From positions 300,001 through 332,000 of the forward strand of contig NZ_LN831039.1 in assembly GCF_001457595.1 (NCBI RefSeq): a stretch of 32,000 nucleotides of DNA. Direction: 5' to 3'. The notes under the pieces are model-generated. The model saw only the letters and a list, made by a program, of their open reading frames with translations. It did no database searches and had not been told where the DNA came from. Within the stretch, counting starts at the first letter, position 1. Each line of letters starts with the position of its first letter. Positions 14,849 to 24,452 of this stretch are shown here, piece after piece. The translations under genes were made by a program, and so were the position numbers. Source of the stretch: Mycolicibacterium smegmatis (GTDB lineage Bacteria > Actinomycetota > Actinomycetes > Mycobacteriales > Mycobacteriaceae).

Positions 14849-15649
14849 TCAGCCGACCTGACGGTGCAGCGTCACCGAGGCCGTGCGGTTGTCGGTGCCG
14901 CTGTTCGACGCGGCCGCGATACCGCGGCCTTTCGCGGTCACCGCGAGCGCGGTGCGGTCGCCGCGGAACAGATCGCGCGAGAACTCGTACGGTGTGCCGG
15001 TCTGATCGAAGGTGACGCGCGTGATCAGCAGAAGCGCGGCCTTGGGCTTGATGCCCAGCAGGGTGGCCTCGTTGCTCGTGGCGTTGACGGCTTCGATGCG
15101 CTCGTCGGCACGGCCGGGCACCAGACCGTACTGCGATTCGAGGACCTCGTAGAGCGATCCGCCGAGCTGCTGTTCGAGCAGACCCGGAAACTTCTCGGCC
15201 GGAAACTGCGCCTGCTCAAGGGATATCGGGGACCCGTCGGCCAACCGCACACGCTGGATCTCGACGACGTACTCTCCCGGCCCGAGACGCAGCGCGGTAC
15301 GGGTGGTCTGGTCGGGCGTGGTGATGCGGGTCGACAGGATTCGGGTGCCCGCCACATATCCCTGATTGGCGAGGAACGCCGGGACGCCCACCACGTCCGA
15401 CAGGTTGCGTTCCACCTGGCCGTGGCTGATGAAGATGCCGCCGGACCGCCCGATCACGCGGTGGACCAGGCCGGCCTCCTCCAGGGCGGCCAGTACCTGA
15501 CGCAGGCTCGAGCGGCTGGTGCCGTACTTCTCGGCGAGGTCGCGTTCGCTTCCGAGCTTGGCGCCCGGTGTTCCCGCGTTGATGTCGGCGACCAGACGGC
15601 GTCGCAACTCCTCGCTCTGTACTGGCACCAGACCCCCTCGCCCGCGCAT
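14849..15649 (-). CDS. GntR-family regulator, HutC subfamily (wHTH + UTRA), last gene of the BMC operon
   Basis: The wHTH is LGSERDLAEKYGTSRSSLRQVLAALEEAGLVHR, followed by a UTRA-like C-terminal domain. The start is ATG 15649, or GTG 15628, which has a better SD (GAGGGGG). The gene abuts the convergent esterase, with the two stop codons forming TGATCA. Confidence 0.88.
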   Translation of the reverse strand: MRGRGGLVPVQSEELRRRLVADINAGTPGAKLGSERDLAEKYGTSRSSLRQVLAALEEAGLVHRVIGRSGGIFISHGQVERNLSDVVGVPAFLANQGYVAGTRILSTRITTPDQTTRTALRLGPGEYVVEIQRVRLADGSPISLEQAQFPAEKFPGLLEQQLGGSLYEVLESQYGLVPGRADERIEAVNATSNEATLLGIKPKAALLLITRVTFDQTGTPYEFSRDLFRGDRTALAVTAKGRGIAAASNSGTDNRTASVTLHRQVG

Positions 15650-15668
15650 TGGTACAGCCAATTCTAAA
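15647..15668 (-). promoter_or_regulatory. Candidate internal promoter/operator in front of the BMC-locus GntR gene
   Basis: The minus strand reads TTTAGAATTGGCTGTACCAATG. It contains a -10-like TAGAAT (15661-15666) fused to the inverted repeat ATTGG-N5-CCAAT (15648-15662), which overlaps the ATG. The core ATTGGCnnTACCAA recurs at 22833-22846. Confidence 0.4.
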
Positions 15669-15677
15669 CCGGTCGAG

Positions 15678-16457
15678 CTACAACTCGGCGATTGCGAGGT
15701 GCGATTCGGGCAGCACCTGCCCACCATCGACGACCAGCGTCTGTCCCGTGACGTAGGCCGCCTCGTCGGTTGCGAAGAACAGCGCTGCGTTACCGATGTC
15801 GGCAACCGATCCGAGGCGCCCGGCCGGGATGGCGGACGCCATTTGGTCGAGGTAGTCCTGGCCCATTTCGTCGAGGCCCTCGGTCATGATGTTGCCGGGG
15901 AGCACCGCGTTGATCGTGATCTTCTTGGGTGCGAGCTCCATGGCCGCGGTGCGCAGGAAGCCGAGCTGGGCGGCCTTGCTGGCCCCGTAGTGCGACCAGC
16001 CGGGGTATCCGGTGATGGGACCCGTGATGGACGACGTGACGACGACGCGACCGTGGCCGCTGGCAGTCAGCGCCTGCAGGGCGGCCTGCACGATGTAGAC
16101 GGTGCCCTTGAAGTTGACGCCGAGGACCTGCTCGATGTCATCGGGGGTGAGGTCTTCGAGCCGGCCGGACGGGAAGATGCCTGCGTTGGCGCACACGATG
16201 TCGAGTCCGCCGTGGCGCGAGACGGTCTCGGCGACCGTGCGGCGGGCATCCTCGGGGTCGGTGACGTCGGCCCGCAGCGCGGTGACCTTGCCGCGCGTGC
16301 CCGAGAGGTCCGCGACCGTGCGGTCGAGGTCGTCCTGGTTGCGTCCGGTGATCACGACGTCGACACCGGCGTTGGCGAAGGTCTCGGCGATACCGCGGCC
16401 GATGCCCTTGCTGCCGCCGGTGACGATGGCCGATCGGCCCTCAAGAGAGGTGAACAT
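15678..16457 (-). CDS. SDR oxidoreductase (probable 1-amino-2-propanol dehydrogenase of the RMM pathway)
   Basis: 259 aa. [11 protein letters not shown] and YGASKAA (YxxxK) motifs. SD GAGGA lies upstream. The functional role is inferred from the locus context. Confidence 0.88.
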
Positions 16458-16493
16458 GTTGAGTCCTCGAAAGTTTGGTGGGTGTGCGGGAGA

Positions 16494-22773: not shown

Positions 22774-22803
22774 ACCGTAAAAGGTTGCAACCATTTCTGT
22801 CAA
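22774..22803 (-). promoter_or_regulatory. Candidate sigma-A-type promoter of the BMC operon, with the palindrome GGTTGCAACC in its spacer
   Basis: The minus strand reads TTGACA (22803-22798), an 18-nt spacer, then TACGGT (22779-22774, fits TANNNT). The perfect 10-bp palindrome GGTTGCAACC (22783-22792) lies wholly inside the spacer. It extends to a near-palindrome at 22779-22796. Confidence 0.5.
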
Positions 22804-22830
22804 TGGTGTGAAGAACCTCTTGCATCTGAG

Positions 22831-22852
22831 ATTTGGTAGTGCCAATATACGT
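22831..22852 (-). promoter_or_regulatory. Second copy of the ATTGGCnnTACCAA motif, with an overlapping -10-like TATATT
   Basis: The minus strand reads ACGTATATTGGCACTACCAAAT. The core at 22833-22846 matches 15649-15662 at 12 of 14 positions. TATATT is at 22849-22844. The site lies 101-114 bp upstream of the operon ATG and 71-84 bp upstream of the permease ATG. Confidence 0.4.
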
Positions 22853-22916
22853 ACGGTTCAAGATGTGGTCCACGCCACACCTGGCCTACACTGTAACCTG
22901 GAAGGTAAGCCGCTAG

Positions 22917-24452
22917 ATGACCGAACAATCCGTCGCTGGTAGCGAAAACGCAGCTCACGACATACAACGCCTCAAGCGGAACGCCGTCGGCACCGTCGGG
23001 GTGATCTTCATGGCGGTGGCCACCGCCGCCCCGATCACCGCAATGGTCGGCAACGTTCCGATCGCCGTCGGTTTCGGAAATGGTTCACACGCTCCCGCGG
23101 GCTACTTCGTCGCCACGGTGGTTCTGGGCCTGTTCGCCATCGGCTACGCGACGATGGCCAAGCACATCACCGCCACCGGCGCGTTCTACGGGTACATCTC
23201 CCATGGTCTCGGGCGCATCGTCGGTATGGCCGCAGGCGGTCTCATCACGATGGCCTACGTCGTGTTCGAGGCCTCGCTGATCGGTATCTTCTCGTTCTTC
23301 TTCCAGAACTTCCTGGACTCCCAGCTCGGCATCCACATCCACTGGATCATCCCGGCCCTGCTGATGCTGGCCACCAACGCGATCCTGACGTACTTCGACG
23401 TCAACCTGACCGCCAAGGTGCTGGGCGTGTTCCTGGTGACCGAGATCGTCATGCTCGCCCTCGGTGCGGTGGCGGTGCTGTTCCGCGGCGGTGGACCCGA
23501 CGGGTTCGCGGTCAATGAGATCCTCAATCCCGCAGGAGCATTCAGTCCCGCAGCCGGCATCGTCGGTGCGAGCGCCGGACTCGGTCTGTTCTTCGCGTTC
23601 TGGTCGTGGGTCGGATTCGAGTCGACGGCCATGTACGGCGAGGAATCACGCAACCCCAAGCGGATCATCCCCCGCGCCACCATGATCGCCGTCCTCGGCG
23701 TCGGCGTGTTCTACGTGTTCATCTCCTGGATGGCCATCGCGGGAACCGGTCCGCAGCAGTCGATCGAGCTCGCGCAGGACGCCAACACGGCGTCGGAGAT
23801 CTTCTTCGCGCCCGTCCGTGACACCTACGGCGAGTGGGCCATCACGGTGTTCAACATCCTGCTGGTCACGGGATCGTTCGCGTGCGGCATGGCGTTCCAC
23901 AACTGCGCGTCGCGGTATCTGTACGCGCTCGGCCGTGAGGGCCTGTCGCGGGGTCTGCAGAAGACCCTGGGCGCCACGCATCCCACCCACGGGTCGCCGT
24001 ACATCGCGTCGTTCGTGCAGTCCGCCATCGCACTGGTGATCGTGTTGTCGTTCCTGTTCGCGGGCATGGATCCGTACGTGCACATGTACACGCTGCTGGC
24101 GATCCTCGGGACCATGGCCATCCTGATCGTGCAGTCGCTGTGCGCGTTCTCGGTGATCAGTTACTTCCACATCCACAAGAACCATCCGGAGTCCAAGCAC
24201 TGGTTCAAGACACTCGTCGCGCCCGGCCTCGGCGGTCTCGGCATGCTGTATGTCGTGTACCTGCTGTGGGAGCACAAGGACACCGCGGCCGGAACCGCCT
24301 CGGGCACACTGCTGTTCAAGCTCACACCGTGGATCGTGGTGAGTGTGTTCGTGCTCGGCGCGGCCCTGGCCACCTACTTCAAGCTGCGGGACCCCCGCCG
24401 CTACGGGTTGATCGGCCGCATCGTCTACGACGAAGCCGTCGAACGCGACTAG
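22917..24452 (+). CDS. APC-superfamily amino acid/amine permease
   Basis: 511 aa, about 12 hydrophobic segments, with an APC-like N-terminal region (LKRNAVGTVGVIFMAVATAAPITAM). It is divergent from the BMC operon and is a plausible substrate importer. Confidence 0.92.
   Translation: MTEQSVAGSENAAHDIQRLKRNAVGTVGVIFMAVATAAPITAMVGNVPIAVGFGNGSHAPAGYFVATVVLGLFAIGYATMAKHITATGAFYGYISHGLGRIVGMAAGGLITMAYVVFEASLIGIFSFFFQNFLDSQLGIHIHWIIPALLMLATNAILTYFDVNLTAKVLGVFLVTEIVMLALGAVAVLFRGGGPDGFAVNEILNPAGAFSPAAGIVGASAGLGLFFAFWSWVGFESTAMYGEESRNPKRIIPRATMIAVLGVGVFYVFISWMAIAGTGPQQSIELAQDANTASEIFFAPVRDTYGEWAITVFNILLVTGSFACGMAFHNCASRYLYALGREGLSRGLQKTLGATHPTHGSPYIASFVQSAIALVIVLSFLFAGMDPYVHMYTLLAILGTMAILIVQSLCAFSVISYFHIHKNHPESKHWFKTLVAPGLGGLGMLYVVYLLWEHKDTAAGTASGTLLFKLTPWIVVSVFVLGAALATYFKLRDPRRYGLIGRIVYDEAVERD

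Follow-up and report, generated by a model that had tools for sequence, protein, structure and literature searches.

The window, a 32,000-nucleotide stretch of Mycolicibacterium smegmatis DNA, carries the RMM1 (AAUM, or 'Aut') bacterial-microcompartment locus of this species, and all eleven open reading frames of the original prediction, ten on the minus strand and a divergent permease, are present at the coordinates and in the order it had given. Its domain calls are borne out by Pfam and NCBIfam profile matches, and its assignment to the RMM type holds, because the encoded proteins are the M. smegmatis proteins that have been crystallized and the gene set is that of the RMM1 definition (Axen 2014). 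Exact-sequence matching also places the proteins in M. smegmatis. Judged by sequence, this is the RMM1/AAUM model locus in a strain other than mc²155. Relative to MSMEG_0268-0278 of mc²155 (Axen 2014; Mallette & Kimber 2017, 2018; Ravcheev 2019), the same locus here shows strain-level substitutions only: the shell proteins are 100% identical, the aminotransferase-fold (AT-fold) enzyme is identical, the kinase differs at three residues and the short-chain dehydrogenase (SDR) at one, and the gene of the MSMEG_0274 family is the most variable. As the original prediction recognized, the system has been described, with structures for its shell proteins (5L37, 5L38, 5L39 and 5SUH) and kinase (6EF6), and for the SDR as well (6CI8/6CI9). 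Because the locus is already published, our re-analysis is no discovery; in silico throughout, it adds predictions on operators, encapsulation peptides and aminotransferase chemistry.

Gene order is identical in 84 of the 84 related chromosomal loci examined (80 genomic and 4 distant metagenomic), and at four gene junctions the stop codon overlaps the start of the next gene. Over-extension of open reading frames at the 5' end is common in high-GC DNA, and three of the raw frames (the aldehyde dehydrogenase, the BMC-T at 19255-19863 and the GntR regulator) are too long there.

Shell proteins and enzymes of the locus

The shell genes, all on the minus strand, encode a BMC-H hexamer (MSM0272; 18157..18438; 100% identical to 5L38; PF00936 7.5e-27), a BMC-P pentamer (MSM0273; 18451..18714; 100% identical to 5L37; PF03319 2.6e-18) and two BMC-T proteins of the double-stacking type. 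The first of these is of the CcmP/CsoS1D type (MSM0271; 17498..18154; 100% identical to 5SUH; NCBIfam CcmP 4.5e-56); the second (MSM0275; 19255..19863; 100% identical to 5L39; NCBIfam CcmP 7.5e-61) starts at GTG 19863, giving 202 residues and agreeing with the N-terminus in 5L39. The original prediction had offered PF00936 and PF03319 matches of the shell proteins as a check on itself: BMC-H and BMC-P match, but the BMC-T at 17498-18154 has no PF00936 match in the Pfam copy used, so this check partly fails despite the protein's 100% identity to 5SUH.

On the same strand lie the genes for the SDR (15678..16457; 1e-165 to 6CI8/6CI9), named (S)-1-amino-2-propanol dehydrogenase or aminoacetone reductase in reference lists that cite the published work; the APH-fold (S)-1-amino-2-propanol kinase, APK (16494..17498; 1e-227 to 6EF6; Pfam APH PF01636 1e-25); the class-III AT-fold PLP enzyme (MSMEG_0277; 21452..22732; PF00202 4e-72), a candidate 1-amino-2-propanol-O-phosphate phospho-lyase; and a CoA-acylating aldehyde dehydrogenase (ALDH) of 527 residues, presumably acting on propionaldehyde (19872..21455; NCBIfam AdhE-N 4e-132; EutE-type TIGR02518 6e-113). 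The true ALDH start is GTG 21455, which overlaps the stop of the AT-fold gene as GTGA. Titles, PDB entries and secondary citations are the source of the kinase and SDR specificities (Mallette & Kimber). The plus-strand gene encodes an APC-family amino-acid permease (22917..24452; PF13520 1.8e-28; PF00324 8.8e-20), presumed to import the substrate; it diverges from the AT-fold gene in 70 of 80 loci, the contigs of the remaining loci being incomplete.

The locus resembles the Pdu and Eut metabolosomes in its BMC-H/T/P shell, its aldehyde-generating signature enzyme, its dedicated regulator and transporter, and its CoA-acylating ALDH with a (here predicted) encapsulation peptide. It differs from them in that the signature enzyme is a kinase-fed PLP enzyme, not a B12 or glycyl-radical enzyme, and in that both BMC-T proteins are double-stacking, a type absent from Pdu1 and Eut1. 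It also lacks a phosphotransacylase and a cofactor-recycling alcohol dehydrogenase, as already remarked for RMM1 (Axen 2014). The original description of a full organelle kit is thus overstated, and NAD+ and CoA recycling within a closed shell is left unexplained. Our literature search found no report of shell formation, induction or co-transcription in vivo in M. smegmatis.

Predicted promoters and operators

The tenth minus-strand gene encodes a 259-residue HutC-subfamily regulator with GntR helix-turn-helix and UTRA domains (14849..15628; Pfam UTRA 4.8e-42, GntR 1.5e-11). Its most likely start is GTG 15628, where a GAGGGGG Shine-Dalgarno sequence and the GTG are conserved across loci; the alternative, ATG 15649, lies inside a predicted operator, O3. 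This operator (TTGGCTGTACCAA, 15661-15649) is one of two matches that the window has to the 13-bp palindrome TTGG-N5-CCAA, where 0.14 would be expected, and it is overlapped by a -10-like TAGAAT (15666-15661) in a predicted gntR promoter (15649..15666, minus strand). The exact O3 motif is found in 68 of 76 orthologous SDR-gntR gaps, with TAGAAT at a fixed offset in 49 of 69 loci and some TANNNT in 66 of 69. The other site, O1 (TTGGCACTACCAA, 22845-22833), is similarly overlapped by a -10-like TATATT (22849-22844; whole element 22833..22849, minus strand); it recurs exactly in 63 of 70 permease-AT intergenic regions, about -113 from the AT start, and the ATA directly upstream of it is conserved. 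Across 1.51 Mb of related loci, 131 of the 136 exact occurrences of the palindrome are at O1 or O3.

Closer to the AT-fold gene we predict a proximal operon promoter (22774..22803, minus strand), with TTGACA at -35 (22803-22798), an 18-nt spacer and TACGGT at -10 (22779-22774); in 70 of 71 loci a TTGAC lies no more than 100 nt from the AT start. The spacer contains an operator-like palindrome, O2 (22794-22782); in other species it holds ATGGTCCGACCAT. About 32 bp from O1 lies a conserved CRP-like palindrome, TGTGG-N6-CCACA (22864..22879), present in 60 of 70 loci; all 60 of its occurrences in the 1.51 Mb fall in the permease-AT intergenic region, and its Nocardioides counterpart is TGTGT-N6-CTCACA. 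All of these operator, promoter and CRP assignments are comparative predictions.

Because the two TTGG-N5-CCAA operators overlap -10 elements, gntR probably has its own autoregulated promoter, and the ten co-directional genes, previously taken for one ten-gene operon, are probably nine plus one. The HutC-type GntR protein would repress both the distal operon promoter and the gntR promoter through these sites at their -10 elements, a weaker site being located between the -35 and -10 elements of the proximal promoter, and an amino-alcohol would lift the repression. GntR repression and 1-amino-2-propanol induction have been reported by others for the Rhodococcus ortholog (Axen 2014; Ravcheev 2019). 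In the aminoalcohol dehydrogenase cluster of Rhodococcus erythropolis (Kataoka 2006/2008; Urano 2011), an orthologous gene set in another genus, the SDR is under the control of a repressor of the GntR family, with 1-amino-2-propanol as inducer; we found no published operator sequence for this cluster in the literature searched. The Rhodococcus loci in our comparison set share the gene order and operators of the window locus, and in one of them (L042) the distal site has one mismatch and the proximal site is stronger.

Predicted encapsulation peptides and the MSMEG_0274-family protein

The ALDH catalytic-domain profile stops about 75 residues short of the C-terminus. What follows is a Pro-rich, non-conserved linker of ~50 residues and then a near-invariant terminal helix, found in 74 of 75 orthologs, which we predict to be an encapsulation peptide (LDALRAELRALVVEELAQLIKR; 19875..19940, minus strand). 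A helix with the same motif, ELRALV-E, begins the 173-residue core protein of the MSMEG_0274 family (18731..19252, minus strand; predicted peptide TREELRALVREVVREAVGS, 19187..19243), and the 114 occurrences of this motif in 3.0 million six-frame residues are all at those two termini. A variable linker with a conserved terminal helix agrees with how encapsulation peptides are defined in the literature, and both termini look like such peptides. Plasmid pRHL2 carries a second RMM-like locus, whose ALDH and AT-fold enzyme each end in that same helix.

The 173-residue protein occupies the same slot in 84 of 84 chromosomal loci, and its family comprises 608 clusters. It is without a known fold: sequence, profile and fold comparisons with Pfam, NCBIfam and the PDB gave no match. 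The AlphaFold2 model (pLDDT 83-87) is helical at residues 5-32 (pLDDT 88-95) and continues into a disordered linker; overall, the N-terminal helix is followed by a Pro/Ala linker and then by a pair of small alpha/beta modules. Among relatives the helix is conserved and the linker variable. A single 90% cluster holds the window copy and the mc²155 protein as separate members, and the window copy shares 95% identity with a further M. smegmatis sequence.

By analogy, this is most likely a non-enzymatic assembly or adaptor protein resembling CcmN of the beta-carboxysome, a small, non-enzymatic protein whose terminal encapsulation peptide follows a flexible linker and which joins cargo and shell. 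The two share an overall logic, but they have no similarity in sequence or fold, the helix here is N-terminal, and the adaptor function is a prediction. It is a serious possibility, if one we hold at somewhat under an even chance, that the protein, instead of being an adaptor for the lyase, helps shells in general to assemble or nucleate, or is a minor component of the lumen or shell with no bearing on cargo choice. It always lies between shell genes (84 loci), and on pRHL2, whose AT-fold enzyme carries a targeting helix itself, a homolog is nevertheless kept and lies, together with shell genes, in a 1,686-nt module that has been duplicated exactly; against this, the lyase of the window locus still requires some route into the lumen. 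The shell-assembly reading refines the overall explanation given below and does not contradict it.

Proposed pathway and chemistry of the AT-fold enzyme

The best explanation would run as follows. The permease would import aminoacetone or 1-amino-2-propanol; the SDR, a published enzyme with a structure, would interconvert aminoacetone and (S)-1-amino-2-propanol; and the kinase, likewise published with a structure, would phosphorylate the amino-alcohol. The AT-fold enzyme would eliminate phosphate and ammonia to give propionaldehyde, which the ALDH, judging from its family, would convert to propionyl-CoA. The C-terminal peptide would target the ALDH to the lumen, the shell proteins (BMC-H, BMC-P and the two double-stacking BMC-T; structures published) would confine the aldehyde step, and the 173-residue protein, with the same helix at its N-terminus, would most likely act in assembly or as an adaptor. 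As a whole, covering identity, lyase pathway, targeting and regulation, we consider this account quite probable.

The same chemistry could proceed with only the lyase enclosed and the ALDH, kinase and SDR cytosolic, on the ground that the shell interior cannot recycle all of the four unrelated cofactors; Mallette and Kimber are said to have raised this alternative in a 2018 abstract. Cofactor-recycling enzymes are indeed absent from the locus, and neither the kinase nor the SDR is extended at a terminus, but the encapsulation-peptide-like tail is on the ALDH (74 of 75 loci) and not on the lyase, the opposite of what this arrangement predicts, and a lumen that produces the aldehyde but lacks the enzyme to consume it would go against what a metabolosome is normally for. 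We therefore regard it as unlikely. Because the AT-fold enzyme of the window has no terminal extension, its own lumenal location is an assumption.

Among the enzymes of the locus, the AT-fold enzyme is the most highly conserved (mean 86% identity). In 75 of 75 orthologs it retains the PLP residues Lys268, Asp239, Gln242 and Thr297 (GabT numbering), and in the same 75 the transaminase residues are replaced (Arg398→Gln, Glu211→Thr and Arg141→His). In transaminases the Arg/Glu pair is reported to be highly conserved and to bind the glutamate carboxylate, and its loss favors a phospho-lyase role over both published transaminase schemes. By overall sequence the enzyme is nearest to real transaminases (putrescine aminotransferase, 2.5e-57), and its best NCBIfam and PDB matches are putrescine and acetylornithine aminotransferases; the original assignment as a phospho-lyase is thus favored by the active site and stays an inference, the closest solved relatives being real transaminases. 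We found no demonstration of phosphate elimination by this protein in the literature accessible to our search.

Axen 2014 proposed that the SDR converts aminopropanol to aminoacetone, an aminotransferase forms methylglyoxal and the ALDH makes pyruvyl-CoA inside the shell. This scheme fits the overall sequence affinity to real transaminases, and the toxicity of methylglyoxal would give a reason for a shell, but it is very improbable: the Arg/Glu pair for binding the 2-oxoacid/glutamate co-substrate is absent from 75 of 75 orthologs, and no role is left for the strictly conserved kinase, published as an aminopropanol kinase. Least probable is the scheme of Ravcheev 2019, in which an aminotransferase converts aminopropanol to lactaldehyde, the ALDH forms lactyl-CoA and the APH protein, as a phosphotransferase, yields phospholactate: it would balance NADH between ALDH and SDR, but it faces the same missing pair in 75 of 75 orthologs, an APH protein that has an ATP-dependent small-molecule kinase fold and was crystallized and named as an aminopropanol kinase, not an acyl-CoA phosphotransferase, and natural kinase+AT-fold fusions that argue for consecutive action on the amino-alcohol.

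These fusion families, PRK06148 and PRK06149, whose N-terminal half is matched by the kinase (NCBIfam), support the lyase reading, since in them kinase and AT-fold enzyme would act consecutively. The AT-fold enzyme of the pRHL2 locus belongs to them (PRK06148 type; 2e-127) and has also lost the Arg/Glu pair. With them and with ETNPPL/AGXT2L1 the window enzyme shares its fold and the proposed chemistry, in which an APH-type kinase makes an O-phospho-amino-alcohol and phosphate is then lost from it by 1,2-elimination, but it is not a family member and shares only 27% identity with the pRHL2 enzyme. The lyases listed in the subgroup are only ETNPPL, one close relative and PbfA (2021 paper), and the window enzyme falls outside the ETNPPL-like family. 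From its active site, we infer that it is a phospho-lyase rather than a transaminase; if so, it would represent an independent lineage of such lyases.

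Composition and identity of the locus

All eleven open reading frames that the original prediction placed between 14849 and 24452, ten on the minus strand plus a divergent APC permease, were found in the order and on the strands it described. Their families were borne out by Pfam and NCBIfam domain matches, namely a class-III aminotransferase (AT) fold, a EutE/AdhE-N-type CoA-acylating aldehyde dehydrogenase (ALDH), an APH-fold kinase and an SDR; the permease likewise matched as an amino-acid permease, and the regulator carries a GntR winged-helix domain and a UTRA effector domain of the HutC type (Pfam). 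The CoA-acylating assignment of the ALDH (19872–21455, minus strand) derives from NCBIfam matches to TIGR02518 (5.7e-113) and AdhE-N (4e-132).

The shell genes had been expected to match the BMC profiles PF00936 and PF03319. This held for BMC-H (MSM0272; PF00936, 7.5e-27; 100% identity to 5L38) and the vertex protein BMC-P (MSM0273; PF03319, 2.6e-18; 100% identity to 5L37). It did not hold for the BMC-T protein MSM0271 (17498–18154, minus strand), which has no PF00936 match in the Pfam version used yet is 100% identical to the crystallized 5SUH. Both this protein (NCBIfam CcmP, 4.5e-56) and the second BMC-T, MSM0275 (19255–19863; CcmP, 7.5e-61; 100% identity to 5L39), are CcmP/CsoS1D-type pseudohexameric trimers. 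For MSM0271 homologues, a newer model, PF27545 (CsoS1D_N), is listed in precomputed annotations. Because MSM0271 lacks a PF00936 match, BMC screens that use Pfam only can miss double-stacking BMC-T proteins.

Exact-sequence look-up of the locus proteins returned M. smegmatis, an actinobacterial host as RMM1 requires. RMM1 was named by Axen 2014 and later renamed AAUM, and 'Aut' by Ravcheev 2019. Its defining set, an AT-fold enzyme, AldDH, APH phosphotransferase, SDR, amino-acid permease and GntR regulator, is clustered here with the shell genes, and the Pfam-scanned ORFs of the 32-kb window include no diol or glycerol dehydratase subunit, the feature that discriminates RMM2 from RMM1. Each defining feature examined was found, and the locus belongs to the RMM1/AAUM type. 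The original prediction was also correct that the system had been described, the locus in the window being the RMM1 locus of Axen 2014; the microcompartment finding is real, rightly interpreted and already known. As the re-identification of a published model locus in its model species, it carries small weight as a finding. The shell is known here from its genes, and its assembly and enclosure of cargo in vivo are predicted.

The AT-fold sequence equals the mc²155 protein exactly, and the exact matches of the kinase and of the MSMEG_0274-family protein encoded between BMC-T and BMC-P come from other isolates; the window holds the RMM1 of a strain other than mc²155. Differences between strains cluster in the kinase (16494–17498, minus strand), which differs by three substitutions from its closest solved structure, the mc²155 construct 6EF6, and in the MSMEG_0274-family protein (18731–19252, minus strand), which is only 95% identical to another M. 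smegmatis sequence. The shell proteins and the AT-fold enzyme are invariant at this level, and the SDR differs by one substitution from its closest solved structure, 6CI8/6CI9.

The CoA-acylating ALDH is shared with the canonical metabolosome core, but no PduL/Pta or Fe-ADH domain was detected in the Pfam-scanned ORFs of the locus or the 32-kb window. Because the phosphotransacylase and alcohol dehydrogenase that recycle CoA and NAD+ are missing, the locus is not a canonical metabolosome. Their absence was already remarked by Axen 2014, and the RMM system apparently needs four unrelated cofactors without recycling enzymes.

Gene order, flanks and predicted regulatory sites

Three raw ORFs were over-extended because the DNA is about 68% GC, and the true starts are likely GTG codons at 21455 (ALDH), 19863 (BMC-T) and 15628 (GntR). 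Neighbouring genes share overlapping stop and start codons (GTGA or TGATG) at the AT/ALDH, BMC-T/MSMEG_0274 and BMC-T/kinase junctions and possibly at ALDH/BMC-T, and the remaining intergenic gaps are at most 36 nt; packing is comparably tight in related species, with approximate gap values. No convincing terminator was found within the locus, where the single weak match, inside the kinase gene, is fewer than expected by chance. A pattern scan detected relatives of the MSMEG_0274-family protein in 450 species-level genomes, and the best 80 loci, from Mycolicibacterium, Rhodococcus, Nocardioides, Leekyejoonella and Intrasporangiaceae, were compared. Wherever the contig allows, all 80 have the order divergent permease / AT–ALDH–BMC-T–MSMEG_0274–BMC-P–BMC-H–BMC-T–kinase–SDR–GntR. 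Four far more distant metagenomic loci keep the MSMEG_0274 family in the same slot, giving 84 chromosomal loci with one order. Compared with the window, BMC-H (94% mean identity) and the AT-fold enzyme (86%) are the best conserved, and the MSMEG_0274-family protein (60%) is the least. The metagenomic RMM loci L084–L087 have additional conserved neighbours, with FGGY sugar-type kinase and Fe-ADH genes upstream of the permease, and a second Aminotran_3–Aldedh pair with a small gene (126–210 aa) of unassigned family downstream of GntR; IS605 OrfB/TnpB genes adjoin two of them.

The locus is bracketed by two Abhydrolase_3 esterase/lipase-type genes (13499–14848, plus strand, and 24713–25612, minus strand) of about 27–30% mutual identity. 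The permease-side hydrolase is kept in 30 of the 80 loci, all close relatives, and the other in 15, at variable distance, so neither was accepted as a core gene; they are probably what Axen's description of RMM1 lists as 'multiple hydrolases'. On the right flank lie a GMC oxidoreductase (25700–27274), an SDR (27639–28409), a flavodoxin-like protein and a second HutC-type GntR/UTRA regulator (29988 to about 30700, minus strand) near a TetR regulator (29205–29837); a paralogous aminopropanol pathway was ruled out there, as the flank has no kinase/lyase pair. To the left (115–11629), a GTP-dependent PEP carboxykinase (115–1974) is followed by a lipid/acyl-CoA-type cluster comprising an acyl-CoA synthetase (3026–4540), an SDR (within 5434–7680), MaoC (7090–8082), a CoA-transferase III (8092–9225), an amidohydrolase (9219–10490) and an MFS transporter (10391–11629). 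Beyond it, an Orn/Lys/Arg decarboxylase (11508–13124) and a family-4-type UDG (13114–13785) accompany the RMM locus in about 15 of the 80 genomes.

Genetic evidence of repression exists for the Rhodococcus GntR orthologue, with 1-amino-2-propanol as the inducer, in the account of Urano 2011 relayed by Axen 2014 and Ravcheev 2019. The classical HutC operator GTnTAnAC gave a single chance-level match, outside the locus, and was replaced by an empirically found element, TTGG-N5-CCAA, whose two occurrences in the window compare with an expectation of 0.14. The predicted distal operator, O1, lies in the divergent permease–AT region (22833–22845), and the second copy, O3, in the SDR–gntR gap (15649–15661). 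Exact copies occupy 63 of 70 permease–AT regions, where they sit some 113 nt before the AT start, as well as 68 of 76 SDR–gntR gaps. The related loci, 1.51 Mb in all, contain 136 copies, of which 131 lie at these two positions, and the consensus TTGGTC-n-GACCAA forms a palindrome of HutC-like type. O1 and O3 are each overlapped at their first bases by a −10-like TANNNT (TATATT at O1, TAGAAT before gntR at O3), and the gntR hexamer keeps a fixed offset in 49 of 69 loci. This arrangement suggests repression at the −10/start region and an autoregulated gntR promoter.

A second, proximal and conserved promoter is predicted nearer the AT gene (TTGACA, 18-nt spacer, TACGGT), with TTGAC kept in 70 of 71 loci. 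Its spacer holds a third operator-like palindrome, O2 (22782–22794), which many species have in a strong form (ATGGTCCGACCAT) and the window in a degenerate one (ATGGTTGCAACCT). A further palindrome at 22864–22879, TGTGGTCCACGCCACA (TGTGG-N6-CCACA), some 32 bp away from the predicted GntR operator O1, looks like a CRP/FNR-type site. All 60 occurrences of this pattern in the 1.51 Mb fall in the permease–AT intergenic region (60/70 loci), and the Nocardioides version is TGTGT-N6-CTCACA. The label follows the CRP consensus TGTGA-N6-TCACA; no published mycobacterial CRP consensus was found. Such a site, if real, would suggest catabolite control. Nothing in Rfam matched a riboswitch or leader RNA here. 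These operator, promoter and CRP-site assignments are predictions from comparative analysis.

Lyase or transaminase chemistry of the AT-fold enzyme

The AT-fold enzyme (21452–22732, minus strand) is the critical step among three published schemes. In that of Axen 2014, aminoacetone is transaminated to methylglyoxal and carried to pyruvyl-CoA; in that of Ravcheev 2019, aminopropanol is transaminated to lactaldehyde, leading to lactyl-CoA and phospholactate. Mallette and Kimber instead have a kinase and a phospho-lyase yield propionaldehyde, then propionyl-CoA. Overall similarity sits with the transaminases: the enzyme matches PF00202 (Pfam, 4e-72), its nearest solved relatives are real transaminases, with putrescine aminotransferase first (2.5e-57), and no phospho-lyase appears among its best 60 solved-structure matches. 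According to a 2021 paper, the lyases of this subgroup are only ETNPPL, one close relative and PbfA, and in the literature consulted we found no published demonstration that an RMM AT-fold enzyme releases phosphate, ammonia and aldehyde.

An alignment was made of the enzyme, its 74 orthologues and the E. coli proteins GabT, PatA and ArgD. The residues of PLP chemistry (Lys268, Asp239, Gln242, Thr297 and Tyr138, GabT numbering) are kept in all 75 sequences, including the Schiff-base lysine and the aspartate at the pyridine nitrogen that a class-III aminotransferase requires. In the same 75, Arg398 is replaced by Gln, Glu211 by Thr (QGEGG to PATYG) and Arg141 by His; GabT, PatA and ArgD retain Arg and Glu at the pair positions. 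This pair, GabT Arg398/Glu211, corresponds to OAT Arg413/Glu235, is described as highly conserved among transaminases and binds the carboxylate of the 2-oxoacid or glutamate. Because it is lost, ordinary 2-oxoacid-dependent transamination is disfavoured, and with it the schemes of Axen 2014 and Ravcheev 2019. Judged from its residues, the enzyme has the aminotransferase fold and lacks one defining transaminase feature, a signature that predicts lyase rather than transaminase chemistry.

Fusion families offer independent support for the lyase reading. The first ~300 residues of the NCBIfam models PRK06148/PRK06149 match the kinase, and their last ~430 have the AT fold. In the RMM-like locus on plasmid pRHL2, an AT-fold enzyme of this very family lies next to an APH kinase, an ALDH and the shell genes, and has likewise lost the Arg/Glu pair. 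We take this family to be the AGXT2L/ETNPPL phospho-lyases, reportedly described by Veiga-da-Cunha et al. in 2012, a work that the 2021 paper cites. PRK06148 and PRK06149 are absent from the best 25 NCBIfam matches of the AT-fold enzyme in the window, which is 27% identical to its counterpart on plasmid pRHL2 of R. jostii RHA1, and by sequence it does not belong to the ETNPPL-type family. If a lyase, it would represent a second, independent lyase lineage.

Candidate targeting peptides and the MSMEG_0274 family

[quoted passage not shown] The one orthologue without it, in Mycobacterium hubeiense (L048), ends in unrelated residues, suggesting a frameshift or sequencing error. The MSMEG_0274-family protein begins with (D/E)LRxLVREVLRE and a variable Pro/Ala linker, and AlphaFold2 models a helix at residues 5–32 (pLDDT 88–95) followed by disorder. 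In six-frame translation the window shows the shared motif [DE][LIVM]R.[LIVM]V.E exactly two times, at the ALDH C-terminus and this N-terminus; the 80 loci (3.0 million six-frame residues) yield 114 instances, of which 73 lie at the ALDH C-terminus and the other 41 at the MSMEG_0274 N-terminus, with none elsewhere. A hydrophobic-moment scan was not discriminating alone.

Both termini fit the published encapsulation-peptide architecture, and their targeting role is predicted. The ALDH peptide is expected rather than new because BMC aldehyde dehydrogenases generally bear one, at either terminus, according to a review. The AT-fold enzyme, kinase and SDR show no terminal extension. The 2018 abstract of Mallette and Kimber reportedly suggests that the lyase alone may be inside the shell, with all other enzymes outside; the candidate ALDH peptide speaks against this.

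A rearranged RMM-like locus on pRHL2, a mobilizable linear plasmid (L088; NC_008270.1, 398991–411732), bears on the helix. It encodes an APH kinase, ALDH, shell proteins, an ETNPPL-like AT-fold enzyme of the PRK06148 type, GntR and an 'ethanolamine permease' and has no SDR; it could specify a B12-independent microcompartment for ethanolamine or another amino alcohol, acting through kinase and phospho-lyase. The best NCBIfam matches of its AT-fold enzyme are PRK06148/PRK06149 (2e-127), and there too the Arg/Glu pair is lost, with Ser, Lys and Cys at the three transaminase positions. Its ALDH and AT-fold enzyme share the terminal sequence SGVGLGDGAVREELRRLIVEELRGLIGQNHG, which belongs to an exact 1,686-nt direct repeat (L088 positions 13229–14914 and 17122–18807) containing the encapsulation helix, BMC-T, an MSMEG_0274 homologue, BMC-P and BMC-H. 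The repeat begins exactly at the linker/helix junction, in frame after the ALDH and the AT-fold gene, and the AT-fold enzyme has its own unique linker ahead of it. This layout supports the helix as a putative portable targeting module; the repeat may stem from a recent duplication or from gene conversion, and because its copies are 100% identical and possibly very recent, its weight as evidence is limited.

The MSMEG_0274 family has ~2,880 members at 90% clustering (608 clusters at 50%) and was found only in RMM-type loci among those examined, pRHL2 included. Beyond helix and linker, two modules are confidently modelled, beta-alpha-alpha-beta (67–108) and beta-alpha-beta-alpha-beta (124–170), the second carrying an invariant GAVTE…AVLTPLAR motif, and their mutual orientation is uncertain (pTM 0.39–0.46). 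The 173–175-aa protein has no Pfam or NCBIfam family match, resembled no solved structure in searches by sequence, profile and fold, and shows no sign of a catalytic motif. A hit to PF15953 ('PDU_like') was too weak to accept (E of 0.13 for the query and 0.0087 for the best member; 2 of 67 members), and this family goes unmentioned in the BMC papers. We most favour a protein without enzymatic activity that serves in assembly or as an adaptor, similar in logic to CcmN; it may recruit the lyase, which lacks an encapsulation peptide, into the lumen or nucleate cargo. We lean towards a general assembly role because pRHL2, whose lyase carries a helix itself, retains the homologue and has it co-duplicated with shell genes.

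Taken jointly, a tentative reading, to which we give rather less than even weight, is that the RMM AT-fold protein is an independently evolved PLP phospho-lyase and the MSMEG_0274 family a new-fold, RMM-specific assembly or adaptor protein. The enzyme would then have arisen in the putrescine/acetylornithine-aminotransferase branch, not from ETNPPL, with Gln, Thr and His replacing Arg, Glu and Arg. RMM/AAUM is among the less understood metabolosomes: its signature reaction is a proposal, and an invariant core gene encodes a product without recognized function or fold. The residual value of the analysis is in testable predictions, namely a lyase-type residue signature, defined operator and promoter sequences, and two candidate targeting peptides, which may also be of use as tags for engineered RMM shells.
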